Below are positions 19,101-44,143 of a stretch of DNA of 64,000 nucleotides, in pieces (the first letter of the stretch is position 1; each line of letters starts with the position of its first letter). The notes beneath the pieces were generated by a model. The model did no database searches. It had not been told where the DNA came from and saw only the letters and a list, made by a program, of their open reading frames with translations. The stretch comes from Psilocybe cubensis (lineage: Eukaryota): positions 2,790,001-2,854,000 of the forward strand of contig CM039001.1 of the NCBI GenBank assembly GCA_017499595.2. Reading direction: 5' to 3'. The translations under genes were made by a program, and so were the position numbers.

Positions 19101-20589
19101 CATCAAGTTAAAAATAGAACAAAGTTCAACTTAATCATGTTCTCCGCGCCTGACAATGCATGGACCAAGTTTGCACCTTCTATCAACAGCCAAAACCACA
19201 TTTGCTATATGTTTCATACCTTAAAACTACCTATAGAGATATACAATAACACATCCTGCGTATTACTGGAAGATGAAATACTCTGGGAGAAACCGTACAA
19301 ACCCAACAACAACAACAAATTTATTTTGTACCCCCATACTTAGCAACCAAGTAGCAATCACGCAAGGTACATGTTCACTGCGTATAAGCAAGTTGATAAG
19401 AAAATACACCCTGTATCTACCAGCTTCTCTAAAGATTGCCAAGTTATCCGACAAGTCACAGAGGATCCATTACTCACACTAGGGCCACTACCCACGCATC
19501 TGCTGACATTTATCCCAACTCGAAAAATTTCTACCAAACGCATGTCCAAATTGAAGATTAATTTGGGTCAATTCTTATGGCCTGAAGAAGTCAAGCTATT
19601 CCAGCATGTTATGGTACTTAACGAGGATGGAATTGCTTTTGAAGACATTGAATGTGGAACTTTAAAGGAATCATATTTTTCCTCATATATTATTCCAACT
19701 ATTGCACATTCTTTATGAGAAGAGCGAAACATTCTAATTCTGCTTGGCTTGCGTGACAAGGTTATAGAAATCATCAAGTTAAAAATGGATGCCGGAGTTT
19801 ACAAATAAAGTCAGTCATTTTATTACTCACGCTGGTTTGTAGTACTTAAAAAAAATGGCAAGCTTCAAATCATTCATGATTTGCAACCTTTTAATCAGGT
19901 AGCAATCTACAATGCAGGAACACTGCCTATAGTAGATGATTTTGTGGATAGCTTTGCTGGACGACAATGCTATATAGTGTTTGATTTGTTTTGGAGCTTT
20001 GATGCTCGCAAAATTCATCCACGAAGTTGAGATTTGACTGCTTTTATGACTTTGTTGGGACTTCTAAAAATCACATCTTTACCTACCGGATTTACAAACT
20101 CCCCAACCAAATTTCAGAAGTGCATGGTCATTGTATTACAACCGGAGATACCACATGTAGCCAATATTTTTATAGATGCCATCTATAAAAAGTGCGGGTA
20201 GATTACAAAGCATTGTAAACCCAATTAAATATTTTTTTATTCAAAATTCTCGCACTGCGTTACAACCCTCTTGAAATGTTGTGAGAAACCGGAAATATTG
20301 CAGTGTGAATAAATTAATTTGAGGTTTACAATATTTTTGGGTATTGCAATATGAAAGAATAAGCGGCTAGTTTATAATCTCAACAAATTACTGTATGAGA
20401 TGACAAGGAATCAAGAGCGTTATAAAACATTGCGAGAATTTATTGGGTTTCTCAATGATAAGGAGGATTGAATGGGATTTTGAGGCACCCAGCAGATTAT
20501 AATAGAACAAATTTATTTATTCAGTAATAAAAGTACAGGCATGGTATGTAAAGCAGGGCAGAGCAGAGCAATAATTACAGCAATGAGAG

Positions 20590-22685
20590 ACATCAGAATT
20601 TCTTAGCCTTACGTTTGATAGGTTGGCGCGTTCCCATGGTCTGGGCACCTTTCTTGGCCTTTTTAGCTGGTGGTTCTTCACCGTCGGCGGCAGTGGCGTC
20701 AGAATTGGGAGTAGGCAGGGCCTCATCCCCAGTCTCGAAGGGGTCTGAAGGTGGTGCCTGTAGCTAATATGAGCCCTAGATAGAGAATGTAATAAATACA
20801 CTCACGTCTTTACGCTTTGGACCAGGGCGGCGTGGCGCCGCTTTCCTCTTTGCAGGGAGCTAATCATAATATTAGTGTAATGAACCAATCTCGAATGAAA
20901 ACGCACCTTGATCTTGATCGGGGCTGGTGGGGAAGGGGAGCGTTTGTTTTCGGAAGAAAGAGAGGAAGAATCCTCAGAAGGGAGGTCAGGGGGGGATTCT
21001 GAAGGGATCCTAATCGCGTTTAATGCCATTCGGCGATGGGAGACTTGTTGAGGCACAGGTTCCGCCAGTGAAACAGCTGCAAATGCTTTAGCTAGCGCTG
21101 GTGCAGACCCATTATCTAGGGCGGGGTGGGAGGAGGGTGCGCGTGCTTGAGGAGATGCAGGTGCGGGTGTGGGTACACGAGCAGGTTCGGGTGTGGGTGC
21201 ACGAGGGGATGCGGGTGCAGGTGCACGAGCAGGTGCAGGTGCTTGAGCCGCAGCGGCCATTTGAGCTTTACGCCGTTCTACCGGGTCTCTGAGGCGTCCG
21301 TCGCGTGCACTACCTTCCAAAGAGGACGACTTCTTGTCATGATCCACGGGCTCAGATGGTAAGATAATGTTCCTAGAAATTCATTAGCATAAAATCAAGC
21401 GCGTAAGGCATGCTTACTCTTGCCACCAAGCCACAGTCTCCTTGGCCCACGTATTGTCATCAGAAAGACCCGACAGAAGCGTCAGAATAAATGCGTAGAG
21501 GCGGTCGGCCTTCAAAATGCTTTTCGCCTCAGGCCAAGTCTTACCGCTGATTGCAATGACAAGCTTTGAAGGAGGTTAGCACTGACAGACTACTGGCAAT
21601 GTCCACTTACCATCATGCAATAATAACATATGAGTCTTATCGTTAGTTCATATACTTTGTGAATCTGTCCTTTGCTGGCACGTCTTCCAAGCCTGTTGGC
21701 CTCGCCTACAAGCATACGTTGGACGAACTAGAGTGCCAATATGTATCAATGACATGTCAAAACATAAAAAAAAACTTACTTGGGGACCCAAGAGTGGTCA
21801 AAACAGACCTTGGACCTCGTTGTCTATGTCAAATGGGATGTCAGGGTCATACAAGCAAGCTGGCTAATCCAGCGCGTCTCCATTTTTGGTATCGGCTTCG
21901 AGTGATTCACATTGCACGCTATCCACAAATAAATCAACTCATATTCGCAGAAAATAACAAGCCGACTTACAGAATTTCACGCGCATTGAGGTCGGCGAGC
22001 TCGGCGAACTTGACACGTGGGATTAAAAGAGCGGCGTATGCAGGGTGTTTATAGCCCCGGTTCACCCTGGCACAGGCCAGTTTGTAGGCCTGTAGGTCAA
22101 GTGGGACCCTCAGATCAAATAGGATCAACTCCGGGATCAACTTATGTGCCTTGAAGAGATCGTCGGATCGCGAATGAGCTGCAGCACTCGATACCTTACA
22201 AGTATGGTTAGTCGATCTGTACATGCGACCTCACAAAATTCTTACCAAATCAATGACTTTGCCAATCAAGGCAGAATTGTCCTTGCACTTCTTGATGATA
22301 TCCATAAGGTCGGGCATTAAGTCCTGCATCTCATAAAAGGACCAGAGCTTGGGTTGTAAACTAATATATGCATAAATAAATGCCCCAGAAAAAAAAAGGC
22401 GCATATACTTACTCCAATATTTGTTGTCGGGTCATACCATCCGTTATATGGTTGGCCAGAAACTCAAGACCCTCTTGGATGACGCTCTTTACGTTCAAAA
22501 ATGGGTTGATGGACTGGTGAATCCATCTCGCGCCCTTCAGAGTGTCTGCTAGTTCGGGGCATCTACAAATAACGTTAGCGGTTAACGCGCACGGGGACGG
22601 GGGAGGGGGGGATTCAGGCTTACTCGAGTTCTTTGTTGGTGTTGATAGCCATGAGGGCTTTTTCAATCTGGGTCGGGGTGAGCAT
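20590..22685 (-). pseudogene. Transposon cargo gene 1, DUF6698-like basidiomycete protein with Pro/Ala-rich tail (disrupted)
   Basis: Multi-exon remnants ARWIHQSINPFLNVKSVIQEG, AAHSRSDD, RGYKHPAYAALLIP, ELTIRLICYYC and WAKETVAWWQ resemble the DUF6698 motif order (from recall). In-frame stops; 3' end approximate. Confidence 0.55.
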
Positions 22686-22989
22686 GGTGGTGGATGGTGG
22701 TGGTACGGGAAGAAAAGGGATGAAAAAAACTCCCTTCCGCATATACCGAGCGCAATGGTTATGTAATGGACACCTGAGGAGGTACAGATGTCCGCGCTAT
22801 TCCGCGCCATTGCCATAACTAGCGGGCGAAGGAGGCGCGATTGCCATCGACAGCGAGCTGTCAGAGGATAAAAATAGCCCACCGCGAATCACCATAGCCA
22901 GGAGGTAGCCACCCAAGACGCCCCAGGTATATCCGTGTGTTGAAGCTTGTGGCCAGGGCTTTCGACAACGAGAAGGGGTGTATACGCAC

Positions 22990-23318
22990 ACCAAACGAAC
23001 CCCTAGGTATTTCCGTGGGTTGAAGGGTGTGAGCACCGACTTGAGCAGCCTACAGACTACGGAATCACCGTAGTCAGCAGGCTGCCACCCAACGAATCCC
23101 CAGGTATCTCCGTGGGTTGAAGGATGTGGGCACCGACTTGAGCAGCCTACAGACTACGGAATCACCGTAGTCAGCAGGCTGCCACCCAACGAACCCCCAG
23201 GTATTTCCGTGGGTTGAAGGATGTGGGCACCGACTTGAGCAGCCTACAGACTACGGAATCACTGTAGTCAGCAGGCTGCCACCCAACGAACCCCCAGGTA
23301 TTTCTGTGGGTTGAAGGG
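22990..23318. repeat. 97-bp tandem repeat, ~3.4 copies, each full unit containing a long hairpin
   Basis: CAGCCTACAGACTACGGAATC recurs at 23046, 23143 and 23240. Each full unit contains GCAGCCT..GACTACGG-AATCA-CCGTAGTC..AGGCTGC (the third has CTGTAGTC). Confidence 0.95.
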
Positions 23319-23451
23319 TGGTAGTGGTGCGGAAGTCAACAGAGCCAACAAACGGAACCCCTACCCAAATTCAGATTCCGCCTGATGGCAATTTCAAACT
23401 CCGACACACGTGGTGATCTCAACACGTTCCTGCGTCATTGGTTCTTCTTCG

Positions 23452-23647
23452 CTACCCAGGCTCATTGCTCGGGCAGCCTCACTACCCAGGCTCATTGCTC
23501 GGGCAGTACGCGCAACCTACCCAGGCTCATTGCTAGGGTAGAACGCGAGACACTACCCAGGCTCATTGCTTAGGCAGAACTCATAAACTACCCAGGCTCA
23601 TTGCTAGGGCAGTACGCTTAAACTACCCAGGCTCATTGCCAGGGCAG
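23452..23647 (+). repeat. Array of six 25-nt hairpin units CTACCCAGGCTCATTGCYNRGGYAG with 5-11 nt variable spacers
   Basis: Units start at 23452, 23482, 23517, 23553, 23588 and 23623. Confidence 0.95.
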
Positions 23648-26600
23648 TACGCACCGATAAATTGGAATTCCTGCTCCCCTGACTATCCATAATGCCCCCC
23701 ATATATATCTTACAATATCGAGGTGTATTTGGTTGCTAATTCTACGTACAACAGACTACGCCCTCTTTTGACTGGTCCCAGGGCTCCGTCTTCCTACAAG
23801 ACGGTATAATTTACTACTCTCCCAATTGTAACTGACCAGTCCGTATCAAGACCCCAGAGCGGAATCACCCCCACCCATTCCCCGAACGTGCAGAGCCAGA
23901 TCCCACCTCTGTTAAGCATCCTGTCTGGTGGACAGACACCTTTGGGTGGATGTCCTTCATACCGCTCAACCCATCCTTTATCTCCGACCCCTTCGACACC
24001 TTTACCTGACAGCCTGAGCTGGATGTAACTCCTAGCTATAATACTCCACCCGGTCCCACTCTCTACCAGCTCGAAATTCATACTATAAAGCATTGGCGGT
24101 TTAAGGAACAATGTTTACTAGAAGCTGCGCACAAAATGAAGCTATGGTACCACGTACCAGCCAGTCAACCACCCCCGCCTTCCATCTTTAAATACGATGA
24201 GCCCTACACATCAAAAGAAGAAGCTTATCGCCAGATTAAATTGGCGCGAGATTGGTTTGCCGTATGGATGGGATTCTTTGCATATTTCGCTGCGTGTGCA
24301 AAGTATGACAAGTATTGTGCAGGAAAGATGGTGAGAGAGAAGGGCGAGTTACTACCCCGATGGTATACCAGGCTGCTCGAGGAGGTTCCGATGCTACAGC
24401 GATCCTGGTTGTACGGGCTTTTAACATCGCCAGCGTGTGTATTCTCACCCGACACTCAGCGTGCAGGGATAGTTATTCCCTGGTATGAATATGACAATCG
24501 GAGGCCCGAGATACAGTTCTTCCTGGACCAGCAGATTCCTGTTTTCTTTCCGTGGTGTGCCATCGCAGAACAGGCCATCATAAACAACCCCACCCTTTGC
24601 TATCTTGAGCCTCCTGCAAACCTTGTTTGGGATGCCCTTGAGAAGTTTCTGAACCGATTCCCCAGTGTTCCTCTCGCTGGCCTAATCCTTAGGTCTTACT
24701 TTCGATTTCATGATCGCCCGCTGCACTCCACCAAACATATATTGAGAATGGAACACAGTACGTCGTTGGTCACAAAATATATGTATGAAAAATTTGCCTC
24801 GCAAACCGACAAGGTCAAGGCGGCTATGGAGGAGAACCAGATGGAGGCCACGGTTGCAGAATTGAGGGAGATAGTAAGCCGAGCCATGGACATGGACCTC
24901 GCAGAGGCCAAGCGAGCCATAGCAAATCTCCCCACTCACGATTGGATGGACAAAGGTGACTACCACCGGAGAGGAGAGTTGTACGACCACGTCTCAATAT
25001 TCTTGGAGAAACACGAGAGAAACCAGCGCTTTATCATTGCGACTGAGACCGAGGACGCAAAGATCAAAAGGCTTCAAAGAGAGGAGGCCCTCCCGGGGTA
25101 CAACACATTGGTCTATAGGTGGAAAAGTGTCACGACGCCGGGGGGGAAGAAATTATACATGCGAGTTTGCCTCCTTCAATCAAAGCACGAGAGACTGTTC
25201 GCAAAGGTGCCTCCCTCTCAACGAACATACAATGCAGTCTCAAACGAGTGGGACATTTTTGATGAAGTGGATTTGCCACGAAAATATCTGCAATTTGTGG
25301 ACCCCCCTCCTAGGAAGGACGGTTATATCTACGACTATCCTATCCAAGCCGCCCGCATCAATCCCCAGTCCATCATCCCCGACAACGATGTACCCCGTGT
25401 GGAATCCGTTCCCGTCATCCCAGAACCCTGTGTAGACTCTTCCTCGGGTGGTGTGACTTCCTCTCATGAAACTCAGTACGAAACATTCCCCATGGACACG
25501 GAGGAATTTCAGGAGGGGCCTTCCCAGCCTCTGGTACATCGTCCAGAGCCGGGCCCCTCCACCATGGATACCGACACTGATGAAGCTTCGAAAATCCACG
25601 ATTACGATTGGGACACTGCCGACCTCATCTCCAACTTGCGATACAGCTATGGATTCGTAGCCTCTGTAGTCCCAAAGAAGGAGGATAAGACACCGGAAGG
25701 CTGGAAACACGCCTGTCAACACTTTGGGTTTTGTCAGGGTTTCTCCAGTTTCCCCTCTTTATCTTCACAGAATTATCTTACCCTTTCATTATCTTATCAA
25801 TTATCTGATTAGATAGTTTATTTCTTTCATCACAGCCTTTTTGCTCCACTTCTTTCTAGTAAATTCTATATGATTCCTAGTCTTACTCATCCTTTTTCTA
25901 TATGATGTCACTTTTATTCTTTAACCTTCCTTTATGATGTAATGTAGGGAATATTCTAGAATAGCTGTAGAGTATAAATACTGGACTTGTAGGTAGCTGT
26001 AGCTTCAGCTTCAATCTCTTAGGATATCCACTATCATTGGTGTGATCTCTTAGAACCATTGAATCTCTCTCACTCTCTTATTCTCTCTTTGCTCTCTTAC
26101 TCTCCCTCTGCTCTCTCTCTCTCTTGCTTAATCTTTGTTGGTGGCCTTGTCACACTGATTATAGTGTTGCCCTGACAGAAGATTGAAGCTCTCTCAAGAC
26201 AACTCCACCATCTCTCTTTCAACACCAAACTCTTCACCTCTTCAACCTCTTCAACACCATTACCTCAACCTTCTTCCTCCACTTCCAACCCACCAACCTC
26301 TTCATCAACCTCTTCACCAATCTTCTTACCACTCTCTACATCTCCACCAATCTTCAACATCCTCCTCAAGACCTTTCCTCAAGACCTTTGGCTCATCATC
26401 TTTCCTACTCTCTGTTGTGTGCTGTGTGTGAACTTAGTAGATAGGGATACCAACTGTTGGGGCAGACACAGTCCTACTAGTGTTCTGTTTTTGGTGGTCT
26501 AGGAAATATCCAGTAACCCTGTGATCCTAGGTTTAGAGCCCTGAGTGGTGTGACAACTGGGTATCCAGTAGATAGATATTTTTTTTTTTTAGAATACTTA

Positions 26601-26673
26601 GTATAGTTTCAAGGGCACTTTCAGTAGATAGCTTCTCCCACACACACATCAGAGAGCCTACCTACCCCTACCC

Positions 26674-27783
26674 ATGGACATGGACCCCTCCCAATTGCCT
26701 CCCACCACTCCTTCTGTGGAAGAGCTCATGCATCAGGTCCAGCTCCTTACCCAAGAGTTGAATTTTCTTAGACAGCAGCAGCAGTCATTATCCACTCCAC
26801 CACACCCTCAGCAACCAGTCAGTCAGTCACCATCACCACCACCACCACCACCACCTGCTGCTCTAGATATTCACTCTTTCCCTACCCCTCATGTTGCCCC
26901 TTCCTGTTCACACTCTGCCATTAAAGTCTCACCTCCAGATCCATTTGATGGTTCTATGGAGAAGGCAGAAAACTTCCTCAGTCAGCTTAAATTATATTTC
27001 TATGGGAAAGGGATTACAGATGACTTTCAGAAAGTTATTTGTGCTCTATCTCATATGAAAGGAGGTACTGCTGGGAAGTGGGCATATGAGAAGACTAAAG
27101 TAATAGACAATGCTCAGTCCCAAGAAGGTCTTTGGGCTGACTTTGTTTATGAATTTAGGGAAGTGTTTGCAGATCCAGACCCCTCCAACACAGCTAAGCA
27201 TAAAATGCACATGCTCAAGCAAGGCAGACAGACTGCTGATGAGTATGTTGCTAGCTTCAGGGCTCTGATCTCAGATACTGGGTATAATGATGCTGCTTTG
27301 GTAGACCAATTCAAGGCTGGGCTTAATGAAAATCTCAGGAATGCAGTCTACTATGTTCCTGATATGCCCAAAACCTTGGATGGATGGATTAAATGGAGTA
27401 CTAGGCTAGATAGGCAGTGGAGACAGAGTGAGGCCTTTACCAAGTCTCTTTCCTCCTCCTCTTCTTCTCCCTTCCTTAAAGCCCCAACTCCCAAGGCTGT
27501 TCCTAAGCCTACTCCAAATCCTCCAGTCTTTTCCAACAGCAGCTCAAGGACCTTTGGTGCTCAGGCAAAGCAACCAGATGTAGTTCCCATGGAGGTTGAC
27601 TCTGGATGGAAGTCAGTTAGGCCAATTGTTTGCTTCAAGTGCAGAAAGCCTGGTCATAAGGCTGTAAACTGCAGGTCATCAGTTAACATCAATGCTATGA
27701 CCCATGAAGAACTGGCTGACTACTTTGGGAAATTAATCTTGGAAGGCAAGGAGCAGAAAGATGAGGAAAAGAAAAATTTTTAG
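26674..27783 (+). CDS. gag: Retrotransposon Gag with CCHC zinc knuckle
   Basis: PDPFDG, LKQGRQTADEYVASFR, VPMEVD and CFKCRKPGHKAVNC. Confidence 0.95.
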   Translation: MDMDPSQLPPTTPSVEELMHQVQLLTQELNFLRQQQQSLSTPPHPQQPVSQSPSPPPPPPPAALDIHSFPTPHVAPSCSHSAIKVSPPDPFDGSMEKAENFLSQLKLYFYGKGITDDFQKVICALSHMKGGTAGKWAYEKTKVIDNAQSQEGLWADFVYEFREVFADPDPSNTAKHKMHMLKQGRQTADEYVASFRALISDTGYNDAALVDQFKAGLNENLRNAVYYVPDMPKTLDGWIKWSTRLDRQWRQSEAFTKSLSSSSSSPFLKAPTPKAVPKPTPNPPVFSNSSSRTFGAQAKQPDVVPMEVDSGWKSVRPIVCFKCRKPGHKAVNCRSSVNINAMTHEELADYFGKLILEGKEQKDEEKKNF

Positions 27784-30700
27784 AAGCACCATTGGTGAAA
27801 GACATGTCCCAATGGAATAGATTTAATGTACTAGAAAATGAAATTGACAGACTTGATCCTCAGTCTTCAGATTCTGGTGCAGAAATCATGTCTTCTTCTT
27901 CCTCTCTTTCTACCTTCCCTGAAAAGATCTACATCCTCAACCATAATCCTAAAACCTCTACCCATTTGTCTGTCATCTTAAAGACAATGGACACAGAGAA
28001 AAGGTTATCTGTTGATGCTTTGCTTGATTCTGGAGCTACTGGCCTCTTTCTGCATTCTGGTTTTGTGAAGTATCATAATCTCAACACAAGGAAACTTCCT
28101 AGAGCCATTCCAGTCTATAATGTTGATGGTACTCTCAACAAGAGTGGCTCTATCCATGAGGAAGTAGACTTAATTATGGTACACAAAAACCATACAGAAA
28201 GGGCCACCTTTGCTGTTTGTGACTTGGGAGACAAATCTGCTATCATTGGACATACTTGGCTTTGGCACCATAATCCAGATGTTGATTGGAAGACAGGGGA
28301 TGTCCAGTTTATTAGATGTCCCTCTGACTGCCAAATGGAAGCCAAAAGAGCCAGAAGAAAGAGGCAGAGAATAGCTGCAGTCAAAAGGAGGAAACTCCCT
28401 CAATTTGATGAAGAAGAAGATGATTCTATTGAAGATTCTTCTGATTCTGAGATTGAGCCTGAGGATAGAATTTTTATCTCATACCTTCATCCTCAGAAGC
28501 AGTCTATTAATGCTACTTCTACTATGTCTCAAAGATTAGCAGAAGAGTCTCATCAGCAAGCTGATTCCCCTAAGAAAACCTTTGAAGAAACTGTTCCTAA
28601 GCACTATCATCAGTTTAAAGGTGTTTTTTCAAAGGAATCTTTTGATAGGCTACCAGACAGAAAGCCTTGGGATCATGCTATTGAGCTAAAACCTGGTTCT
28701 GAACCTTACAGATCCAAGATTTATCCTCTTTCTCCCAATGAACAAAAGGAACTTGATGCCTTTTTAGAGGAAAATCTGAAGTCTGGCAGGATTAGACCCT
28801 CCAAGTCACCTATGGCCTCCCCTGTATTCTTTGTCAAGAAGAAGGATGGATCTCTTAGGCTTGTCCAGGACTATAGGAAACTGAATGAAATGACCATCAA
28901 GAACTCCTACCCCCTTCCATTGATTTCTGACATCATCACCAAACTCAGCAAAGCCAAATACTTCACCAAACTTGATGTTAGGTGGGGATTTAACAATGTC
29001 AGAATCAAAAAGGGAGATGAATGGAAAGCAGCCTTTAGAACCAATAGAGGGCTGTTTGAACCATTGGTCATGTTCTTTGGTTTAACCAATAGTCCTGCTA
29101 CCTTCCAAACTATGATGAATGATATCTTTATTGAGCTCATTGATGGAAATGTTGTCATTGTCTACATGGATGACATTTTAATTTTCACTGAGACTCTTGA
29201 TCATCATAGAGAGGTAGTCAAGCAAGTTCTGCAAATCCTAGAACAGAACAAACTCTACCTTAAAGCAGAGAAATGTGAATTTGAAAAGGAAAAGATTGAA
29301 TATCTTGGACTAATCATTTCACAAGGCAGGATTGAGATGGATCCTGTCAAGGTAGAGGGAGTTTCTAAATGGCCTGAACCTGAAAATGTCAAGGATGTCC
29401 AATCATTCTTGGGATTTGTTAATTTTTATAGAAGGTTCATAAAGGATTTTGCAGACATTGCTAAGCCCCTTCATGAATTGACAAAGAAAGGAACAGTCTG
29501 GAGATGGAGTCTTAGACAGCAGGAAGCCTTTGACCAGTTAAAGAAGAAAGTCACTTCTTCACCTGTCTTGATTTTCCCTGATGATAACAAGCCATATAAA
29601 GTTGAAGCAGACAGTTCAGATTATGCTACTGGGGCTGTTTTATCTCAGGAAGGATCAGATGGGAAATGGCATCCTGTAGCCTTTATGTCTAAGAGTCTAT
29701 CTGAAGTAGAAAGGAATTATGAGATCCATGACAAAGAGATGCTGGCTATTATCAGAGCACTAGATGAATGGAGACATTATCTTGAAGGAACCCAACATTC
29801 CTTTGAGATTTGGACAGACCACAAAAACTTAGAGTACTTTATGGTTGCCCAAAAGCTCAGCAGAAGGCAAGCCAGATGGTCACTCTTCCTGTCCAGATTT
29901 GATTTTACTCTTCATCATAGGCCTGGTAAAAGATCTCTTAAGCCAGATGCTTTGTCTAGGAGACCAGATCATAAAAAGGGAGAGAATGATAACCAAAATG
30001 TAGTTCTCCTCAAACCTTCCTACTTTAAAATCCAGGCTCTCAAGCAGGGTCATGCTACCATTACTGGTGCAGAAAATGATCTTCTTAAGAAGATTAGAGA
30101 AGCTAAGGAGATGGATGAAAAGGTGGTCAAGGCAGTTCAGGAGCTCAAGAAATCTTCTACCAAGAAGATTGAAGGACAGGAATGGTCAGAAGAACAAGGC
30201 CTTATTCTCTACAGGGGGAAGGTGTATGTTCCCAAGGACAAAGATCTTAGAAGAAAGATTGTGGAACTGCACCATGATGCCTTCATTGCTGGACATCCAG
30301 GGAAATGGAAGACAATTGAGCTAGTCTCTAGGAATTATTGGTGGCCAGGAATGTCACATTTTATTGCAGCCTATATCAGAGGTTGTGATAGATGCAACAG
30401 AACCAAAACCTTTCCAGCCAAACCTCTTGGCCTTTTAATTCCTACTGAGATTCCCTCTGATGTCTGGCAATGCATCTCTGTGGACTTTATTATGGGGTTA
30501 CCAGAATGTCAAGGGTATAATGCCATTATGGTGGTTGTGGATAGACTTAGTAAAATGATCCACATTATCCCTACCACAGATGAAGTCACTTCTGAAGGGA
30601 CAGCCAGACTATACAGAGATTATGTCTGGAAACACCATGGCTTACCCATTAAAATTCTGTGTGATAGAGGTCCACAGTTTGTCTCAAGGTTTATGAAAGA

Positions 30701-31661
30701 ACTCAACTCAATACTTGGTATCCAGACAGCTTCATCTACAGCCTACCATCCCCAAACTGATGGTCAGACTGAAAGAGTTAACCAAGAAATTGAGCAGTAT
30801 CTTAGACTCTTTATAAACCATAGACAAGATGATTGGGTTGAATGGTTAGCTCTAGCTGAATTCTCTTATAACAATAGAGTTCAGGCTTCAACCAGGCAGA
30901 CACCATTCATGCTCAATAATGGCAGACATCCCAGAATGGGCACTGAACCCCTTAGAGATAGTAAAATGGACACTGTGGATACCTTTGTGAAAAATATGGA
31001 AGAAGCCAGGAAAGAAGCAGAGTCTGCACTTAGAAAAGCTGCTGATGATATGGCTAAATTCTATAATAGACACAGAGGTACTCCAACTCAGTACAAAGTT
31101 GGGGATTTGGTATGGTTGGATGGCAAGGACCTCAAAACTGATAGGCCCTCCAAGAAATTGGATGATAAAAGATATGGGCCTTACAAAATTACCAAAGTTA
31201 TTAGCCCTAATGCCTATGAGCTTAAGCTGCCATCTACCATGAAAATCCATCCAGTGTTCAATGTGGTTAAACTTCTACCTTATCACCCAGATATTGTAGG
31301 AAGAAAGCCTCCTTCTAGACCACCTCCTATCATTCAAGGAGAAAATCCTGAGTGGGAAGTTGAATTTATCAAGGACAGCAGACTTTTTAGAAACAAACTT
31401 CAATATTTGGTCAAGTGGAAGAACTACCCTAATGAAGAATGCACTTGGGAGCCTGCAGAGCATTTGAAAAATGCTTCTAAGGCTATCAAGGACTTCCATG
31501 CCAAACATCCTTCAGCACCTAGAAGGATTTCTGCTGTGACCTTTGATAGACTTTCTTTCACTCCTATTATTAACTTTACTGAACCTCCTCCTCTTCTTAA
31601 ACCCTCTAAACTAACCCATCCATGTGCACATTGTGGAAAATGTGCCTTAGAGAGGGGGTGA
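27780..31661 (+). CDS. pol: Pol (protease-RT-RNase H-integrase-chromodomain), in the -1 frame relative to gag
   Basis: LLDSGAT, YMDDIL, EADSSDYATG, HHDAFIAGHPG/CDRC, DRGPQF, QTDGQTERVN and chromodomain WEVEFI..YLVKWKNY..TWEP. Slippery A-AAT-TTT lies at the gag end. Confidence 0.95.
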   Translation, partial: LEAPLVKDMSQWNRFNVLENEIDRLDPQSSDSGAEIMSSSSSLSTFPEKIYILNHNPKTSTHLSVILKTMDTEKRLSVDALLDSGATGLFLHSGFVKYHNLNTRKLPRAIPVYNVDGTLNKSGSIHEEVDLIMVHKNHTERATFAVCDLGDKSAIIGHTWLWHHNPDVDWKTGDVQFIRCPSDCQMEAKRARRKRQRIAAVKRRKLPQFDEEEDDSIEDSSDSEIEPEDRIFISYLHPQKQSINATSTMSQRLAEESHQQADSPKKTFEETVPKHYHQFKGVFSKESFDRLPDRKPWDHAIELKPGSEPYRSKIYPLSPNEQKELDAFLEENLKSGRIRPSKSPMASPVFFVKKKDGSLRLVQDYRKLNEMTIKNSYPLPLISDIITKLSKAKYFTKLDVRWGFNNVRIKKGDEWKAAFRTNRGLFEPLVMFFGLTNSPATFQTMMNDIFIELIDGNVVIVYMDDILIFTETLDHHREVVKQVLQILEQNKLYLKAEKCEFEKEKIEYLGLIISQGRIEMDPVKVEGVSKWPEPENVKDVQSFLGFVNFYRRFIKDFADIAKPLHELTKKGTVWRWSLRQQEAFDQLKKKVTSSPVLIFPDDNKPYKVEADSSDYATGAVLSQEGSDGKWHPVAFMSKSLSEVERNYEIHDKEMLAIIRALDEWRHYLEGTQHSFEIWTDHKNLEYFMVAQKLSRRQARWSLFLSRFDFTLHHRPGKRSLKPDALSRRPDHKKGENDNQNVVLLKPSYFKIQALKQGHATITGAENDLLKKIREAKEMDEKVVKAVQELKKSSTKKIEGQEWSEEQGLILYRGKVYVPKDKDLRRKIVELHHDAFIAGHPGKWKTIELVSRNYWWPGMSHFIAAYIRGCDRCNRTKTFPAKPLGLLIPTEIPSDVWQCISVDFIMGLPECQGYNAIMVVVDRLSKMIHIIPTTDEVTSEGTARLYRDYVWKHHGLPIKILCDRGPQFVSRFMKELNSILGIQTASSTAYHPQTDGQTERVNQEIEQYLRLFINHRQDDWVEWLALAEFSYNNRVQASTRQTPFMLNNGRHPRMGTEPLRDSKMDTVDTFVKNMEEARKEAESALRKAADDMAKFYNRHRGTPTQYKVGDLVWLDGKDLKTDRPSKKLDDKRYGPYKITKVISPNAYELKLPSTMKIHPVFNVVKLLPYHPDIVGRKPPSRPPPIIQGENPEWEVEFIKDSRLFRNKLQYLVKWKNYPNEECTWEPAEHLKNASKAIKDFHAKHPSAPRRISAVTFDRLSFTPIINFTEPPPLLKPSKLTHPCAHCGKCALERG

Positions 31662-33513
31662 TGTCAGGGTTTCTCCAGTTTCCCCTCTTTATCTTCACAG
31701 AATTATCTTACCCTTTCATTATCTTATCAATTATCTGATTAGATAGTTTATTTCTTTCATCACAGCCTTTTTGCTCCACTTCTTTCTAGTAAATTCTATA
31801 TGATTCCTAGTCTTACTCATCCTTTTTCTATATGATGTCACTTTTATTCTTTAACCTTCCTTTATGATGTAATGTAGGGAATATTCTAGAATAGCTGTAG
31901 AGTATAAATACTGGACTTGTAGGTAGCTGTAGCTTCAGCTTCAATCTCTTAGGATATCCACTATCATTGGTGTGATCTCTTAGAACCATTGAATCTCTCT
32001 CACTCTCTTATTCTCTCTTTGCTCTCTTACTCTCCCTCTGCTCTCTCTCTCTCTTGCTTAATCTTTGTTGGTGGCCTTGTCACACTGATTATAGTGTTGC
32101 CCTGACAGGTTTAGAAAGGATGGGGCAGAACAGTTTGTCTCAAACACGGATCGTCAACTCATCTGTCAGTTTCATGACGGTTTGATGGGGTCAACTGACC
32201 GTCCGCTCCCTCAAGACATTCACGATCTCCACCCGCAAAATTACCTATCCCTTCAAGTTTTAGGGAATCTCAGCCTTATCCATCGGCCCATCCCAAATCT
32301 ATTTGTTTTCGCTCATCACGACATACGTGCACCTCAGGAAAAGTCCGACAGAATGTCTGCTGATTGGAGTATTGGAGTCGAAACCCCAGAGGCTGCTTTA
32401 TATGTCTTACGAGTCTTCCAGTCCCATCCTGGGCATACAGTTGTCAGTGTGGCACACAGACTTTTGTCCAAAGGAGTGCAGTTTCGAACTCTTGTCGGGC
32501 GTAAAAATGTGGTTCAGGTGCATCAACCCTACAAGGAAGTTATCTTTTACCGCAAAGTCAGCTACAAGTTTACCAACGACGACTATGAGTCCTCAATGCT
32601 GGCCTGTCGGCAGATACTGGACCAACAACGCGGTCGTGCAGCGCTACTCATGGGTGGAATAGTAGGACGAATCGCCAAAGAGTATCTGAGCACAGAGTCT
32701 GTTCTCCAGGGCCCATCAGTAGAATTGCTGAGAAATGGACGCGGATATGTCGCTAATCCAGAGGCCGAGTTGCTGGCTTACTGCAATGACGGGCTTACAG
32801 AACACGATATTGCGATTATTATCGGGTCGTATTCTCTCATGACGGGTAAGTGTTCACTACATTTAACTGATTGCTCTATTTAATGTCGTTTTTAGATTTT
32901 AAAAATCAGGTCGGAGTCAAGTCTTGGTTTCCTCCCCCGGCGGTATGGAATGAAATCGACAAGAATGGGATAGGATGGCTGGAATGGACTGAACGCAACG
33001 AGTACTGGTACCAGACTAGGCTGGAATTAATTTGAAATGGCAAAGCGCAACCTTTAACGCTTCAAGACTGGAAGAGCCTTCTCAAAAATAAGCCAGTCCG
33101 TATTCTAAGGGAATCGGTGCGAGCTCAATCAGCGGCATTTGTCCATGAACATATCCCCATAACCAGGAATCCTCGTAGATAGGTAGCACATTTTTCTTGT
33201 TTCTTCATTCACGGATCTACACCACTACTCACAGTGTATTTTTGCCTTTGTACATACTACAAAACAAATTTTATGTATACTATCTATATTTCTTCGTACA
33301 GACTATTGGTCAGATATCATGTATACCACGGAAAAAATTGTTTGGACCTGCATCGAAACATGTGTGAATCAATTCTGAGCCCAAAAAACATAAAAAAAAC
33401 ATGAGATTGCTTACAGTAAGCTGGTTAGGCCAATCAAAACTCCGCTAAGTTTTGAACTCCGACACCGCGCCCTATCACACGTGAGGTTGATGTCTGCACT
33501 CTCCTTATTTGCT

Positions 33514-33810: not shown

Positions 33811-33833
33811 TTGTACTTCAGCAGGCCGTAATT

Positions 33834-36800
33834 ATGTCCAACGAAAAAAGACCCTGCTTAGGGTGCCATAAACTCTTTGTACCAGGTCGCTCCTTGAAGC
33901 AGCATACCAACAAATGTAAAAAATATCCTGCTGCAATGAGCAAGGTCCTGAAGGGGTTCCAGGAAAACTTCAGCAGGCAGAATCAGAACAGTAATGTTGC
34001 CAGTGGTTCTTCGCACCAGGCAACCCTGAATAATGAGCCCGGGCCTATGGACGTTGATGTCCATCATGAGTATCTCGATGTGGATATGGTACCACCTCCA
34101 ATGCCCCCTGCGCCTCCACCTAAATCACCAACACCACCACCACATCCCCCGACACCACCACCTCCCATTGAATGGCCCAGAGGACTTCCTCCACGCGTTA
34201 TTAGATTGCCACAGCGCTTCCGAGACGAGGTCCCACCCAAACCTCCTCTAATTATACCACCAGTCGTGGAGGAGGAACCACCTCAGCCTCAGGAACCTCC
34301 ATCTGTGGAGAGTCTGTATCGAACACCAATGAATGGCTATGGGATATTTTGAGAGTATACCTATAGTCCCCCTTCTATTACTCCTGATGAACATTTCACA
34401 CTGTCATCAGTGTCCGATTCTCCAAATATTGCCAAAGACCCAGCCGACTCTTTGAGAAAGGCGTCAGAGGGAACACCAATGGCCCTACCTTCGGATTGGT
34501 TCTTGGATTCTGAGCCAAAAGACAACAAGAGCTTGCTATTCAAAAATCGTTCTACTCAACTTATCATGTCTTGGTTTTACAACGGCCACGGTACTAAATC
34601 CTACGCTGATACCGACAAATTGATTCACCAAGTCGTACTGGACCCGGATTTTGACCCCAAGGACTTTGATTCCTCCTTTTCTACTGCTCAAGAGGCAGCA
34701 CGTCTGGACGAAATCTCCACCCAAAAAAATTCTACAGATTCTACTTTGTCAGAAGTGTGTTGACCGGAAGCTGGGTGGATCAAGGGCAGCTTTTCAATAC
34801 CAGTGCCATGCGACGGTTTCATATTCGATTCGGAAGAGGAGGCTCCTCAATTTGTTGTTGAAAACGTCATGTATCAAAAACCTCTAGAAGTTATCAAACA
34901 GGCCTTTGCAGAATGCACCTCTGAGACGTATACGACCATACCGTACAGAGAATTTTGGCGTCCCTCACCTGACGAACCACCCAAACGCTTATTCTCAGAG
35001 TCCTACGTGGCGGACATTTTCAATGAAGAGTATGAAAAGATCAAGTCAGAGCCACGCATAGGTCCCCACAGACACCTGGAGCCCTTTGTCGTTGGTATCG
35101 GGATTTTTTCAGATTCTACCCACCTGACCAGTTTTGGCGATGCTTCTATATGGCCGATCCTTATGTATATCCTCAACCAGTCAAAATACACCAGAGGGAA
35201 ACCTAAAGAATTTGCTGCGCACCATATTGCGTATATCCCTAAAGTAAGTTTGTATTGACTGGCATGTACTATTCATATTAACGTTTGGGTCATAGCTCAC
35301 AGACACTTTTCAAGATTGGCATCAGCGACAGTTTGGCAAAGCTGCGACATCTGAAATGCTCACCCATATGAGATGCGAGGTCAATACAGGCGTCTGGGGG
35401 CTATTACTTGATGAGGATGTCAAACGAGCGTATGCTGAAGGAGAGGCCGTAGAACTGGCCGACAGAGTATGTCGAGCTATGTATCTCTGTTTTATTTTTA
35501 GTTCAAATGACTACCCCGAAAAGTAAGTCAACATCTACTCGTTATTTCGTTTGATAACTAATGTACAAGCAGAATGCTGCAGTCCTGCTGCAAGTGTCGC
35601 GGCACTTGCTTGTGTCCACGTTGTTTAATTCAAACTATGAATGTCCCAAAGGTTGGATCAAAGATGGATATGCGAAACCGGCTCAAGCTAGCTCGCGTTG
35701 ACAGCAAAATTCGTCAATTTGACATCGAAACTGCCCATAAAGCATTGTTCTTGGGGAAAAAGATTAACAGCAAGGCGGTTAATGGCTTGCTGCAACAGAC
35801 CTCTGCTTTTCCAATTCGGGTATATTTTTATTTCCTCATATCTACGTATTTTGTCTAAGAATATTACATAGAACGCTTTTTCCAAGGCTTTATTTGAATA
35901 TGGCTTCAACTTTTATCGGATGTTTACTGCTAACCGTGTCGAGATACGCAAGCTGCTGTGTGAGGACAGGGAGTTACTGGAGCCCACTCCTCCTGATTTA
36001 CATTATCACATCTCATCAGACGTGCGTTGAAAGTTAGATATACTACCCTGGATGTCACAAAACCAAAACGATCCGGCGACAAGGGTAAGCCAGATTTTTC
36101 GCTTGTTTTTATATACTCAATGTTGTATTTAGGACTTTATGCTTCGTCTCAAAACTCACCTTTATGCCCGCTTATCAGGGGTAAACGAATTCAGTGATAG
36201 CATTGGTACCCATGAGCGACTCCAAATCACAATATTCGGTGACCGAATTTACGAACATCAGGTTCTACGCATCAACTATACTTCGTATGATATGTGTCGA
36301 ATACAAGATACCTTGAAGCCAAACTCTTCCCGATGTGACATCATGGTACTTGCTAGCAACAAAGGTGCAGATCAGCAGGTTCATCTTTATTGGTATGCCC
36401 GTATCATTGGAATCTACCACGCCAATGTGGTAATATCTACCCCTGATGATTACTACCGTGCCTCCAAGCACAAAGTGGATTTTCTTCATGTCCGATGGCT
36501 GGGTGTTTGTGAAGATTGCCATTACGGTTGGAAATATAGAAGGCTTCCACAGTTGGTGTTTGGTGATATCAATGACTCTGCGTCGTTTGGTTTTGTGGAC
36601 CCATCCCTCGTAATTCGTGCAACCCATTTGATTCCTCGCTTCATTCTTGGAAAAATACCGACTCTCGGCCTATCTGTAGCTTATAGAAGCAAAGAAAATA
36701 ATGAAGGGGAAGAATGGGAGAGATATTATGTCAATTTGTGAGTACATTTAGTCACTTCTTACCCTTTACTAATTTTTTACAGTTTTGTGGATCGCGACAT

Positions 36801-37143
36801 GGTCATGCTGTACAGAGGGGGTGGAGTTGGCCACGCTAGCACGCGAGCCGCTACCAATTCTCTTAGGCAAGACCGACGTGCAGATGACATTGCCTCTCGC
36901 AAAAAACGCCGCGAGGCACATGAAGCACCCGATCCTGATCTGGAACCAGATGGGGCCTCAGACCAGGAGCAAGACGCTCAGGACCAGGCTAAAGTGGCAC
37001 CTGAAAACAGCGCCGATTCTGATGACAATGAAGATGACAGCGACCAGCATACCGATTCTGAAGAGGAGGAGGAGGAGGAGGAGGAAAGCGACGAGGATGA
37101 GGACCGGGGTGACCTCGATGAACTTGGGTTCGCTGAATACTAA
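33834..37143 (+). pseudogene. Plavaka-family transposase (disrupted, probable internal deletion near 35930)
   Basis: N-terminal CxxC..H..C finger, then GWIKGSFSIPVP, YQKPLEVIK, FSDSTHLTSFGDASIWP, NQSKYTR, AHHIAYIP, DYPEK, CPRC, RINYTSYD, YWYARIIGIYH, FGFVDP and an acidic tail. Contains introns and CGA>TGA-type stops. Confidence 0.85.
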
Positions 37144-37363
37144 CTGTAGCTTTATGTGAGTCTGTCGTTGATTCTCTTGTACCTCTACTAACACCTTTTT
37201 AGATGTATCCTTGTCTTGGCGAGTAATACACAATACTTTTCTTGATTTTAGCGTGATTCGGTAAGAAAATGTATTGATATTTAACTGAAATTTTATTGTA
37301 ACATCCCTATACATCGCTGTACGCCCTTTGGGCTCTACTCTCTCATTGTGCAACTACGTATGT

Positions 37364-37475
37364 GTGCCTTACCCCCCTCACATCAACCCTCATACACCAC
37401 CTTAGCTGCAGCCCGACACGTGCCTTACCCCCCTCACATCAACCCTCATACACCACCTTAGCTGCAGCCCGACAC
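37364..37475. repeat. Perfect 56-bp direct tandem duplication
   Basis: GTGCCTTACCCCCCTCACATCAACCCTCATACACCACCTTAGCTGCAGCCCGACAC occurs twice in tandem. Confidence 0.95.
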
Positions 37476-37802
37476 GATACCGCCCTTATATTTCAGCGAT
37501 AAGGACAGCACCAAGCATCGCCCCCAACCCAGTTCTGCAGTCTATTTCGACCTGGACGTGCCTGGCGCGCGCCACGCGTGTGCTGCGTATGCGCGCGCCA
37601 CGCGTTTGATGCGTATTGCGCGCGCCACGCATGTGATGCGTATGCGCGCGCCACGCGTGTGCGTGTTCGTCCAGATACAAAGAGGCGTTGATACGGGGAG
37701 GGAGGGGTATACAAATCTCACATGGATGTGTTTTGAAAAATAAAACTTGATTTCATTGTACACGCGTCACGGTAAACTCATAGTGCCTGTCGAACGGGCC
37801 CT

Positions 37803-38189
37803 TTATTCCATCATCTCAACGTCCTGATCATCCCCCTCCCCATCGCGCATCTCAACGTCGCTGTCTTCGACGGTCCCCGAGTCCTTGATACGATTTTCGA
37901 CTGCGACAACCTGTTCCTCCCGCTCTCGAATTTCGCCGTGGGTCGAAACGACGGGTTCGGTGTCGACTCGCCCGGTCATGGGCTCTTCTACGCTGACAAC
38001 GATCTCGACCTTGTTGTCGGTATCAACGTTGACGCCGATTTTTGCGTGCCCGTTGCGGCCATCAACGGCAACGTTGAGCCTGAGGCCGTCGCGATCGATC
38101 GCGAGGCCGAATTGTACTCCTTGGAGTGCAAAAAAAAATTAACAGTGAGTACTTACTTTGAATATTGAAGACTCACCTTGCTCATCCAT
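37803..38189 (-). CDS. Transposon cargo gene 4: small spliced 109-aa acidic protein of unknown function
   Basis: Exon 38189-38177 (MDEQG), intron GTGAGT..AAG 38176-38120, exon 38119-37803 (VQFGLAIDRDGLRLNVAVDG...DDQDVEMME*). No stops. The AAG acceptor is a less common type. Confidence 0.55.
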
Positions 38190-41100
38190 TTGTCGTCTTC
38201 CGTTAACTCTTGTTATGCCATTAGAATGCAGTGGTGACTCGCTGGCGCACTGTGGCAGGTTTGGTGGTGGTGGTGGTGGTGGTGGTAGTTGAAAAAAAGA
38301 AGCGCGCCGCCATCGTTGATGACTGCGGCGCGCTTTTCCACGCCCGTTTTGGTCATCGTCGTCGACGATGAGCTCGATATCGACGATTTTTTAACGGATT
38401 AGCGTGTTTATTTTATGTATACGTATAGAAATACAACGCTTACCGTGTGTGAAACTTCAAATAAGCGATCGTATGTTATATTTAATACACACGCCGGGGC
38501 AAGACATTTGGCCCCTATGTCGACCGGTTATGTAATGGCCGGTCAACCGGACTTGTCGTAAACATACAAAAATTCTTACTTGATTTTGCAGGGTAAAACA
38601 AATAATTGTTTGGATATTGTAAAGCTAATAAAAATATTACTTAACATTGTAAACCGGGCCCCAAAATTTGGGTGCATTTGTAAGACAAAAAATTTATTGT
38701 ATTGGTTTACATAGCATTGTAATCTACTGCCTATTTAGTTGATGTGATTTACCAATCAAGTGTCCAAAATCTCAGTACTTGAATGCAGATGGAGAACCGG
38801 AAACTATACCCAAGAATTCTGGAATTTAAAAATTTATTTGGGAACATGCACAAGATGTACACCAAGTAATGCATTGGATTAAAGAATCTGGCGCTACATT
38901 TGCAGCAAACAAATCACAAATATGTCTTCCAGAAGTACTCATTGTGGGACAGACATGTAACGCGCAAGGGAGATCTCCAGACAAAGCAAAAATTAATAAA
39001 ATTATGGAATAGCCTCCACTTACCACCGAACAGGAAGTACAAAGGTTTTTGGGACTAGCAGGCACAATGCATATATGGATACCCAATTATTCTACTTTGG
39101 TAAAACCCTTATCAGAATTATATCACAAAGACAAAGAATTTATCTGGGATGAAAGGCGTCAAAATGCATTTGACACCATTAAGAATAAAATCACAAATGC
39201 TCTGATACTTATGCTAATTGACTACTGCTCAGAACGACCTGTCATTCTAGCAGTAGATTCTGGCAAATATGCAGTAGGAATGATTTTATATTAGATTGAT
39301 GAAGATGGTAGAAAACGACCAGCTCAATTTGGGTCCATACCAATGAGTGAACCATACCAATGAGTGAAAGGGAATCAAGATACTCACAACCAAAGCTAGA
39401 ATTATTTGGACTATATTGGGCCCTGCAACACTGGAGAATTTACTTAATAGATGTCAAAAACTTGAAGGTAGAGGTAGGTACAAAATACATCAAGAGAATA
39501 TTAAATAATCCAGATTTACAACCCAATGCAGCTATAAATAGATGGATCCAGGGAATATTGTTCTTTGCTTTTGAATTGGTACATGTATCTGCGCAGAATC
39601 ACAAAGGGCCAGATGCATTATCCCGAAGACCCTTAGCAGAAGAAGAAATAGCAGAATCAGATGATGATAGTTGGCTAGATGCAATCACACTCAATACAGA
39701 CCAATGGAATAACAGACATCAAACAGGTTTTGGCTTCTAGAACCGCACAAAATACTCTTTTAGAAAATATTAAACATTTTCTACAAACATTAGAAACACC
39801 CATATTCATGGATAGTCAGAAGAAAAGAAAATTTTTAAGCAAAGCAACTCAATTTTTTATTTAGAATAAACGGATGTACAAGTGCAATGATACTTGATCT
39901 CCATTATTAGTAATTCAGCGACTTGAATCCAAAATTGCTATACTCCGTCGAACACATGAGGAACTAGGACATAAAGGGGTCACCTCTGTATATGAACTAC
40001 TTTGACATTATTTCTACTGGCCACACATGCAAGCAGATGTACACCATCATGTATGTACCTGTCATGAATGCCAAGTACGGAGTTTGAAAAGAACAGAAAT
40101 TCCACTTACCATATCTACTCCAACAAAATTATTCTCAAAAATATATCTTGATATAATGCACATGCCAACCTCACATGACAAGAAAGTCTGTATTATTGCA
40201 GCCCAAGATGACCTATCAGGAGTATGCAAAGCTTGAGCACTAGAAAACAAGACAGCAGAAGAATTAAAACTCTTCTTTTGGGAACAGATATATTGTCAAT
40301 ATGGAGCACCTGAACATGTAATCACGGATAATGGAGGAGAAATAAAAGGTGCATTTGCAATATTACTCAAACGTCTAAAGATTCTACAAATATGCATTAC
40401 TCCTTACAACCATCATGCTAATGGAGTAGTAGAACGTGGTCACTTTGTGTTACAAGAAGCTATCATAAAGTCATGCTAAACTACTAGAACACCTATCACT
40501 CACTGGCCTGAGAAGTTGTCAGAAGCCTTATTCACTGATAGGGTTACAATTAGTTGTATAATAGGATTTTCCCCATATCAACTTCTGCATAGAACCGACC
40601 CCTTACTTTCCTTAGATTTGGCCAAAGCCACTTTTATGGTTGAAGGATTCTGTCCCCGCATGTCAATCAGTCGTTTACTAGCCATGCAAATGCAGCAACT
40701 CAGCAAACACCCAAAAGACATAGAACAGGCCTCAAACATCTTCAAAAAAGCTTGCTTTGCTTCTAAAGAGCAATTTGAAAAGCGGTTTATACACCAACTA
40801 TCCAGAAATAAATATAAAATTGGAGAATTAGTATTGGTTTGGAATATAGCCATTGAAATGAGTCATAATTGCAAACATAAAGTACAATACTTAGGGCCAT
40901 TTATTATCAAACGGCATCATGAAAACGGGTACTATATTGTTAGCAAATTAGATGGAGTGGAGTATAAGGCCAAGGTGGCACCTGCACGGCTCTTACCCTA
41001 TATCACCAGGGATCATCAATTCATGAAAGAGAATCCTACATATCGTAATAATTGCGAATCTGATACATCAGGCACCACTACTTCTGAATCTAAAAGTGAC

Positions 41101-44100: not shown

Positions 44101-44143
44101 AGAGCATATACCATATTGATGTATCAATGTTCCGCCTAATATC

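Follow-up and report, generated by a model that had tools for sequence, protein, structure and literature searches.

A decayed PlavakaB-type DNA transposon in a nest of Gypsy elements in Psilocybe cubensis

Introduction

The En/Spm (CACTA) elements of plants encode two proteins from one spliced unit, the transposase TnpD and the protein TnpA, which binds the subterminal repeats of the element. Plavaka, with PlavakaB included, is placed in the clade CMCT, formed by EnSpm/CACTA, Mirage, Chapaev and Transib (PMC12730594). PlavakaB is defined by 5'-CATCA..TGATG-3' termini and by target-site duplications (TSDs) of 2 or 3 bp, and the TET-carrying Plavaka families reported there are all PlavakaB, from two species (Kojima 2025, PMC12730594). 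MarorPlavaka of Marasmius oreades is defined by PF18759, has characterised terminal inverted repeats (TIRs) and occurs in large numbers in the genome of this member of the Agaricales (Hiltunen et al. 2021, PMC8290104). Here we describe a PlavakaB-type element at positions 20180-38744 of a 64,000-nucleotide stretch of the Psilocybe cubensis genome (assembly GCA_017499595.2, contig CM039001.1, 2,790,001 to 2,854,000, forward strand), called the window below; all coordinates are those of the window.

An earlier note, made from the letters alone, had read this span as a single Plavaka element with four genes. We determined its boundaries, its nesting, the breaks in its genes and its multi-copy status. 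It is a correctly delimited but decayed Plavaka copy, which belongs to an already known transposon type and lies in an ordinary repeat nest. Three mobile elements are very probably nested in time here, the decayed PlavakaB copy sitting in an older Ty3/Gypsy element (Gypsy A) and being split by a younger one (Gypsy B).

With En/Spm the window element shares the CMCT clade, short TIRs, many subterminal words, more than one gene and a TSD of 2-3 bp; it differs in having CATCA rather than CACTA termini, and extra proteins without detectable similarity to known ones. With the published PlavakaB families (PlavakaB-1_GyCo, Plavaka-11_AB, PlavakaB-1_LaDe and PlavakaB-1/2_SLL; PMC12730594) it shares PF18759, the termini CATC(A)..TGATG and the TSD of 2-3 bp, and TTGTAA/TTACAA-like words are also seen, by eye and uncounted, in the first 400 bases of PlavakaB-1_LaDe and PlavakaB-1_SLL. 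Unlike them, it is decayed and holds a nested Gypsy, no TET/JBP gene was found in it, and it carries genes of the DUF6698 and PF28437 families, which go unmentioned in the available sections of that report. MarorPlavaka is likened to it by description, not by TIR sequence (PMC8290104).

Results

Insertion site and termini

The element interrupts the pol gene of Gypsy A within its reverse transcriptase (RT). The features that bound it are the following.

18732..20177, plus strand: left part of pol of the outer Ty3/Gypsy A, up to F-I-D of the RT, in three same-frame open reading frames (ORFs) split by stops (blastp)
20177..20179, no strand: left TSD copy, TG followed by C, or a mutated TGC (sequence)
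20180..38744, plus strand: PlavakaB-type DNA transposon copy of 18,565 bp, with termini CATCT..TTGATG and a Pfam Plavaka match
20180..20242, plus strand: left imperfect TIR, with TTACAA at 20203, 20260 and 20326 and TTGTAA at 20213
37144..38744, no strand: 3' subterminal region, with a 56-bp duplication (37364-37476), a GC-rich 26-bp repeat (37565-37661) and the right TIR (~38682-38744)
38745..38747, no strand: right TSD copy, TG or TGA, overlapping the first D codon of D-L-P (sequence)
38746..40476, plus strand: pol of Gypsy A continued (D-L-P of the RT, RNase H, integrase), degenerate (blastp, Pfam)

The left flank reads TTT ATA GAT G C and then CATCTATAAAAAG, with the D codon at 20175-20177 and CATC from 20180; the right flank reads CCTATTTAGTTGATG and then T GAT TTA CCA, where 38744 is the last base of TGATG and 38746 the first of the DLP codons. 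The left-flank RT fragment matches the RT of the nested Gypsy B pol (blastp E 8e-16), the right flank matches Gypsy B pol just behind YMDD (blastp E 1e-19), and Pfam finds RT_RNaseH_2, RT_RNaseH, Integrase_H2C2 and rve downstream of 38746. Joined in frame, the flanks give ANIFIDDLPI, which aligns with VIVYMDDILI, FIDD lying on YMDD with one Asp from each side, and removal of 20179/20180-38744 restores the RT reading frame exactly. Since each side of the joined alignment supplies one Asp, the Plavaka copy separates the two catalytic Asp codons of Gypsy A, an old element full of stops; this is the split that had been claimed (FID|DLP).

Two readings of the target duplication, TG and a TGA/TGC overlap, both restore ATA GAT GAT TTA CCA. 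As TG it would occupy 20177-20178 and 38745-38746, whereas as TGA its left copy would now read TGC; a single insertion is compatible with both lengths. The 2-bp TG duplication of the earlier note thus fits, and a 3-bp one fits as well.

Both ends carry repeats beyond the expectation of the controls. The imperfect TIRs, of about 60 bp, reach a local score of 30, whereas 2000 shuffles gave at most 19 and 2000 random window pairs at most 24. TTACAA/TTGTAA occurs four times inside 170 bp of each end in mirrored arrangement (TTGTAA near the right end at 38617, 38647, 38678 and 38717), compared with 0.33 per 500 bp window-wide (Poisson p ~4e-4 per end), and the 11-mer GTAGATTACAA has exact matches within the span at its two ends only. 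The right terminus, TTGATG, fits PlavakaB; the left one is CATCT in the window, but reads of other copies give the canonical CATCA, with CATC directly before 20185 (ATAAAA..). Furthermore, the ORF at 34764-35258 matches Pfam Plavaka (PF18759; E 3.8e-11, 43.2 bits against a cut-off of 26.3, profile positions 45-162 of 325). By their letters, the termini and TSD of the window copy fit the published PlavakaB lineage. The identification as Plavaka with ends readable from the split RT motif, and with short imperfect TIRs and subterminal repeats, is borne out.

Gene content and decay

Without the nested Gypsy and its TSD copy the Plavaka copy measures 12,184 bp, or about 13.0 kb with an 853-bp deletion restored. 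Inside it we find these features.

20596..22685, minus strand: DUF6698 (PF20414) gene, multi-exon pseudogene (Pfam on three collinear ORFs; tblastn of P0216)
22989..23317, no strand: 97-bp tandem repeat, 3.4 copies, in a divergent intergenic region
23452..23652, plus strand: CCAGGCTCATTGC array, 6 copies with short inverted flanks, ~100 bp upstream of the large-gene start
23746..25731, plus strand: large gene, 5' part (family label PF28437), 98% identical to the 976-amino-acid protein P0001
25727..25731, no strand: left GGTTT TSD copy of Gypsy B (sequence; read joint 25726>32108, 5 ambiguous letters)
25732..32107, plus strand: young Ty3/Gypsy B of 6,376 bp, long terminal repeats (LTRs) at 25732-26177 and 31662-32107 (Pfam, self-BLAST)
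32108..32112, no strand: right GGTTT TSD copy of Gypsy B (sequence)
32113..33179, plus strand: large gene, 3' part, exons 32113-32883 and ~32895-33179, frame HFGF|RKDG as in P0001
33518..33802, plus strand: CCAGGCTCATTGC array, 8 copies, ending ~30 bp before the transposase ATG
33834..37143, plus strand: Plavaka transposase pseudogene with N-terminal zinc finger, exon borders ~35243, 35296, 35505, 35561, 35818 and 35872

Gypsy B makes up one third of the span and splits the large gene, whose frame runs to CQHFGF and resumes behind Gypsy B as RKDGAEQF, where P0001 reads CQHFGFRKDGAEQF unbroken. Its LTRs form a 453-bp direct-repeat alignment that is 99.6% identical (self-BLAST), with TG..CA ends and a 5-bp TSD, GGTTT. 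Pfam on the 18 largest ORFs identified an open gag (26632-27783) and an open pol (27765-31661, 1298 amino acids) with aspartyl-protease (a weak match), RT, RNase H, integrase and chromo domains; TG..CA LTRs, a TSD of 4-6 bp, and gag and pol in the order protease, RT, RNase H and integrase place it in Ty3/Gypsy. Compared with fungal Ty3/Gypsy chromoviruses, with which it shares the TG..CA LTRs, the 5-bp TSD, a gag zinc knuckle and the pol order with chromodomain, it showed nothing unusual; it is a high-copy element in the species, at about four times the read depth of Plavaka.

The Plavaka transposase has TGA stops at 34350, 34761 and 36028 and lacks 853 bp at 35929|35930, by which residues ~615-864 of its intact 1234-amino-acid paralogue P0018 (Pfam Plavaka E 5.5e-20, positions 45-318) are gone. 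An alignment of 40 Plavaka transposases shows D615, H618, H805, E829 and H832, all within the deleted part, to be nearly invariant, while D393 and D508 are kept; from this alignment, E829 is probably the last catalytic residue, lost from the window copy. Both P0018 and the window copy, the latter in exon 35561-35818, contain a C-x2-C; the conserved positions H805, E829 and H832 further downstream are among those deleted from the window. The best protein matches of the window genes are Psilocybe cubensis entries.

The three DUF6698 exons, scored separately, reach 20.1, 16.0 and 18.3 bits against a cut-off of 23.7, covering profile positions 2-59, 126-155 and 161-203. The intact 555-amino-acid paralogue P0216 maps exon by exon to 22685-20596, and the paralogues found with one window exon (75-100% identical to it) bear the label PF20414 in a precomputed table. 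A Trp codon (21864-21866) and an Arg codon (21798-21800) have become stops in the window. The protein ends in a Lys/Arg-rich tail. Two database entries, P0218 (JR316_0005132, DUF6698) and P0019 (JR316_0005135, a truncated transposase), lie on one 4.15-Mb contig, which is probably the window locus itself.

Nonsense codons interrupt the large gene at residue 30 and at positions 24007-24009 and 33033-33035. Its family comprises 1176 representative clusters (50% identity) at E<=1e-3, and 16 of 17 matches to the large protein carry the precomputed label PF28437; a scan of five family proteins with a local Pfam copy that holds no PF28437 model gave no match (0/5). The model of the 976-amino-acid protein is confident (predicted local distance difference score, pLDDT, 80.5; predicted template modelling score, pTM, 0.78), as is that of its 256-amino-acid C-terminal piece (pLDDT 85.6). 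Foldseek against the PDB found no match to the 976-amino-acid model at E<=0.001, the ESM Atlas returned for the large protein only scores of 0.75, which is chance level, and neither the large-family profile nor P0216 or P0018 found a relevant sequence in the PDB. An hhalign comparison of the large family with the transposase family likewise gave no match (probability 0.1). VIA-align placed the whole model nearest to generic helical bundles (best Z 4.7), which is not meaningful and is uninformative on fold novelty, and the C-terminal piece on 61 residues of RuvA (best Z 5.0), not meaningful either.

Two side observations concern this gene and its surroundings. The P0001 model splices out about 25 residues (SVAHRLLSKGVQFRTL..) that are in frame within window 32113-32883 and conserved in homologues (consensus VTVAHRLLER.IPFRTLL); the P0001 gene model is probably mis-spliced there. 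The CCAGGCTCATTGC motif has 15 matches in the window against 1.8 expected, and its units are flanked by co-varying 5-bp inverted repeats (TATCC/GGATA, TGCCC/GGGCA, TGTCC/GGACA); the arrays may serve regulation or protein binding, or form small hairpins.

The fourth, small gene of the earlier note found no support, the ORFs in 37144-38744 being without a Pfam match at E<=0.05. Its single four-gene span therefore survives in part: the DUF6698-like gene, the large gene and the transposase are present, but an independent Gypsy B lies among them and the small gene is unverified. That no TET/JBP gene is recognised agrees with three comparisons. There is no Tet_JBP Pfam match in 120 ORFs, which a very divergent or intron-rich gene could escape; 12 short motifs, taken from the two PE-type sequences of Table S1 and used in a crude search, gave no cluster of matches; and the large-protein models match no solved chain above Z 5.

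Copies elsewhere in the species

Other copies were assessed from the raw whole-genome shotgun run X13 (same species label; 1631.7 million letters, depth summed over both directions) and from Logan contigs of three further runs (X1, X3, X7), over 19700-39200 at 92% likeness. Read depth was 285-407 in the Plavaka bins 20351-25558 and 32069-37927, 223 in 37928-38578, about 150 in the two mixed flank bins and 1316-1734 in Gypsy B. These depths suggest a Plavaka family of roughly 10 copies (~8-11).

The joint 25726>32108, which skips 6381 bp with 5 ambiguous letters, is carried by 170 reads and by one contig each in X1, X3 and X7; exact skipping means that there are copies without Gypsy B. Furthermore, an X3 contig carries 853 letters between 35929 and 35930, and 286 reads continue at 35929 into a consensus whose translation, VDFMHEVELG, matches P0018 there. 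At the left end, 400 reads part from the window immediately before 20185; CATC is the last stretch that they share with it, and agreement among their flanks is poor (0.45). These observations suggest that most family copies lack both the Gypsy insert and the deletion, and that they diverge from the window at the left terminus. As to the termini, the earlier note had asked whether other copies share them: in the reads, other copies in the species share the left one, and depth is even over the three genes. The alternative that it had named, several independent insertions, applies in part, the nested Gypsy being an independent insertion.

About 90% of X13 reads carry the intact letter at 21865 and 21800, restoring the Trp and Arg of DUF6698. 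Differences between the window and the contigs mostly pair an A or T in the window with a G or C in the contigs (178 of 239 places in X1 and 177 of 246 in X3), and a CpG context was found for 18 of 36 such transitions among the places listed (40 of 546). All 8 nonsense codons are TGA or TAG where the paralogues have Arg or Trp. This pattern fits deamination of methylated cytosines, or a process like repeat-induced point mutation, acting on the window copy. With 8 nonsense codons and the 853-bp deletion, the Plavaka copy is unable to move itself; other copies, seemingly intact at these sites, could in principle supply transposase.

The reads also reveal related insertions elsewhere. In twelve X13 reads, Gypsy-B position 30540, which falls in the GAT codon of the VVVDR motif of integrase, is joined to CATC and 20185; this indicates a further Plavaka copy inside a Gypsy-B relative. 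Both Plavaka insertions seen thus fall in a catalytic Asp codon of a Gypsy pol; the shared sites may be chance or a weak TG/GAT target preference. Reads that join Gypsy-B LTR ends to Plavaka positions 20625 and 22228-22230 (14-18 reads each) indicate that other Plavaka copies were hit elsewhere by the same Gypsy family.

Gene neighbourhoods in metagenome contigs

A metagenome scan with a 12-sequence alignment of the large family gave 15 loci, among them the near-duplicate pairs L005/L009 and L014/L015. Pfam was run on 140 ORFs of at least 90 amino acids from 7 loci, leaving out 43 ORFs of the duplicates L005 and L014, and on 112 ORFs of 48-89 amino acids in the 3.7 kb upstream in L001, L008, L009 and L015.

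One locus, L001, repeats the layout of the window: DUF6698 (-) at 2026-1260, the large gene (+) at 3674-6578 and a Plavaka transposase (+) from 7357. Its DUF6698 gene consists of four collinear minus-strand exons (E 1.3e-15 to 2.8e-5), and the two large genes are 34% identical; order and orientation kept at this identity argue for long joint retention. L001 is also the only locus with either neighbour: Plavaka lies downstream of the large gene in one of the five loci with ~2 kb or more of flank (L001, L002, L007, L008, L013; tblastn with 51 transposases), and DUF6698 lies upstream in one of the four with at least 3.6 kb of flank. At L001:121, ~1.1 kb beyond the DUF6698 domain exons, CATCGGAAGG is followed by ~120-bp tandem units; this site may be the left terminus of the L001 element, whose contig ends inside the transposase.

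Three distinct loci (L008, L009/L005 and L015/L014) share a second multi-gene neighbourhood, extending up to 10 kb upstream of the large-family gene, with tblastx identities of 45-76% over several collinear segments and weak WD40 matches. In L009 a sub-threshold Transposase_21 match (E 3.5e-5) lies at 680-1555 on the minus strand. This second neighbourhood may represent a further giant element, or else a cluster of host genes. In L013 an OPT transporter lies downstream of the large-family gene. Sub-threshold OTT_1508-like deaminase matches stand beside the large-family genes of L002 (3930-4295, minus strand, E 2.7e-4) and L007 (3518-3862, plus strand, E 9.8e-5), the latter behind a 645-amino-acid ORF without a Pfam match. 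A scan of 17 long gene models for fusions found one with WD40 (P0118) and none with Plavaka or DUF6698.

Published PlavakaB insertions measure 6.2-9.3 kb (Fig. S2, PMC12730594), and most are too short for the ~8.7 kb of the three genes. Linkage in L001 alone, the other neighbourhoods and the short published elements together indicate that the two families are cargo of a sub-lineage rather than the core of all Plavaka, and the proposal of the earlier note that they are core transposon genes was too strong. Its suggestion to compare neighbourhoods bore fruit on one side, with L001 repeating the three-gene order, while three other loci share a different neighbourhood. No publication on DUF6698, PF20414 or PF28437 was found in the literature searched.

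Discussion

History of the locus

The order of events at this locus would be as follows. A PlavakaB cut-and-paste transposon, presumably acting by DDE chemistry, would have entered the old Ty3/Gypsy A between its RT Asp codons, duplicating 2 or 3 bp of target. Full-length members of its family would be about 13 kb long and carry, in fixed order, DUF6698 (-), the large gene of ~1000 amino acids and the 1234-amino-acid zinc-finger transposase. The young Gypsy B would later have inserted into the large gene with a 5-bp TSD. The Plavaka copy would also have gathered many G:C-to-A:T transitions, creating the 8 nonsense codons, and suffered an 853-bp deletion in the transposase, which took away the acidic residue that is probably the last catalytic one.

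Several points weigh against this account. The left end of the window copy is CATCT, and a 2-bp TSD would leave the C at 20179 without explanation. For the outer Gypsy A, a search for LTRs found no pair, even with 7-base words. The right terminus has no independent confirmation from reads: among the read rows listed there is no loose end near 38744, so the evidence for this end consists of the TIR and the restored RT frame. The drop in depth over 37928-38578 is a further point, and other copies may differ from the window there. The copy number assumes a genome of ~45 Mb (the contig sets hold 41-47 million letters) and a copy content of X13 equal to that of the window strain. Finally, the large-protein models, confident as they are, match no solved fold.

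The two extra genes

For the two extra proteins an accessory role in transposition, like that of TnpA in En/Spm and with the TTACAA/TTGTAA repeats as candidate sites, is proposed by analogy and only tentatively; that they are cargo, passive or directed at the host, is about equally likely. That the DUF6698 and PF28437 proteins might be conserved accessory genes of a PlavakaB sub-lineage across distant Agaricomycetes, one of them perhaps binding TTACAA/TTGTAA or the CCAGGCTCATTGC arrays, seems rather unlikely to us. A second, unnamed type of giant element, with the context seen in L008, L009 and L015, may carry the large family as cargo too.

Quite possibly, though short of probably, DUF6698 and the large gene are instead lineage-specific captured passengers, as TET/JBP genes are elsewhere, with no role in transposition or with a host-directed one such as anti-silencing. 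The large family does occur in the other conserved neighbourhoods (L008, L009/L005, L015/L014) and fused to WD40 in P0118, and Plavaka follows it in only one of five testable loci. Moreover, passive gene capture by such transposons is described as frequent, and PlavakaB insertions of 6.2-7.5 kb cannot hold ~8.7 kb of genes (Kojima, PMC12730594). What speaks for a closer tie to the element is that gene order and orientation persist in two elements despite the strong divergence of their large genes, and that both extra genes stand at the same read depth as the transposase.

Very improbable, in our view, is a patchwork in which DUF6698 and the large gene lie outside Plavaka, as independent insertions between unrelated TIR-like ends. 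The region is indeed a transposon nest with a right end that reads do not confirm, but depth stays at 285-407 in every Plavaka bin from 20351 to 37927 and falls in the mixed flank bins, and the strongly supported internal breakpoints among those listed are the Gypsy LTR ends and the deletion only. The TIR score far above its controls, the exactly restored RT frame and the same three-gene order in L001 also argue against it. One intact 18.6-kb Plavaka element owning all four genes, for which the two ends set by the split RT motif and the three named genes could be cited, is less credible still and is refuted both as intact and as a single element: 6.4 kb of it is a separate LTR retrotransposon with its own TSD, absent from most other copies, all three genes have stops, the transposase lacks 853 bp, and the fourth gene is not verified.

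Within the preferred account, a decayed PlavakaB copy in Gypsy A that was split by Gypsy B, the conserved three-gene layout is a modest new lead, Plavaka termini and TSDs being already published (PMC12730594). Hundreds of mushroom 'hypothetical protein' models (DUF6698 and the large family) may be transposon cargo or pseudogenes, to be masked before analyses of gene families or their expansion. Plavaka elements were delimited only a short time ago, and the three-gene sub-lineage without TET/JBP offers a test system for a second protein in CMCT elements outside plants. If the accessory role were true, two large 'hypothetical' mushroom families would be transposon machinery and not host genes.

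Other features of the window

Outside the element, two 320-bp direct repeats that are 100% identical (44143-44462 and 50059-50378) bound ~6.2 kb, and 44143-50378 probably represents one more LTR element, a very young one. LTR-like sequences that are related to these repeats but have diverged occur at 15759-16178 and 56314-56733. Positions 1-8000 have a GC content of 57-60%, compared with 30-48% elsewhere in the window, and seem to be the edge of the repeat nest.

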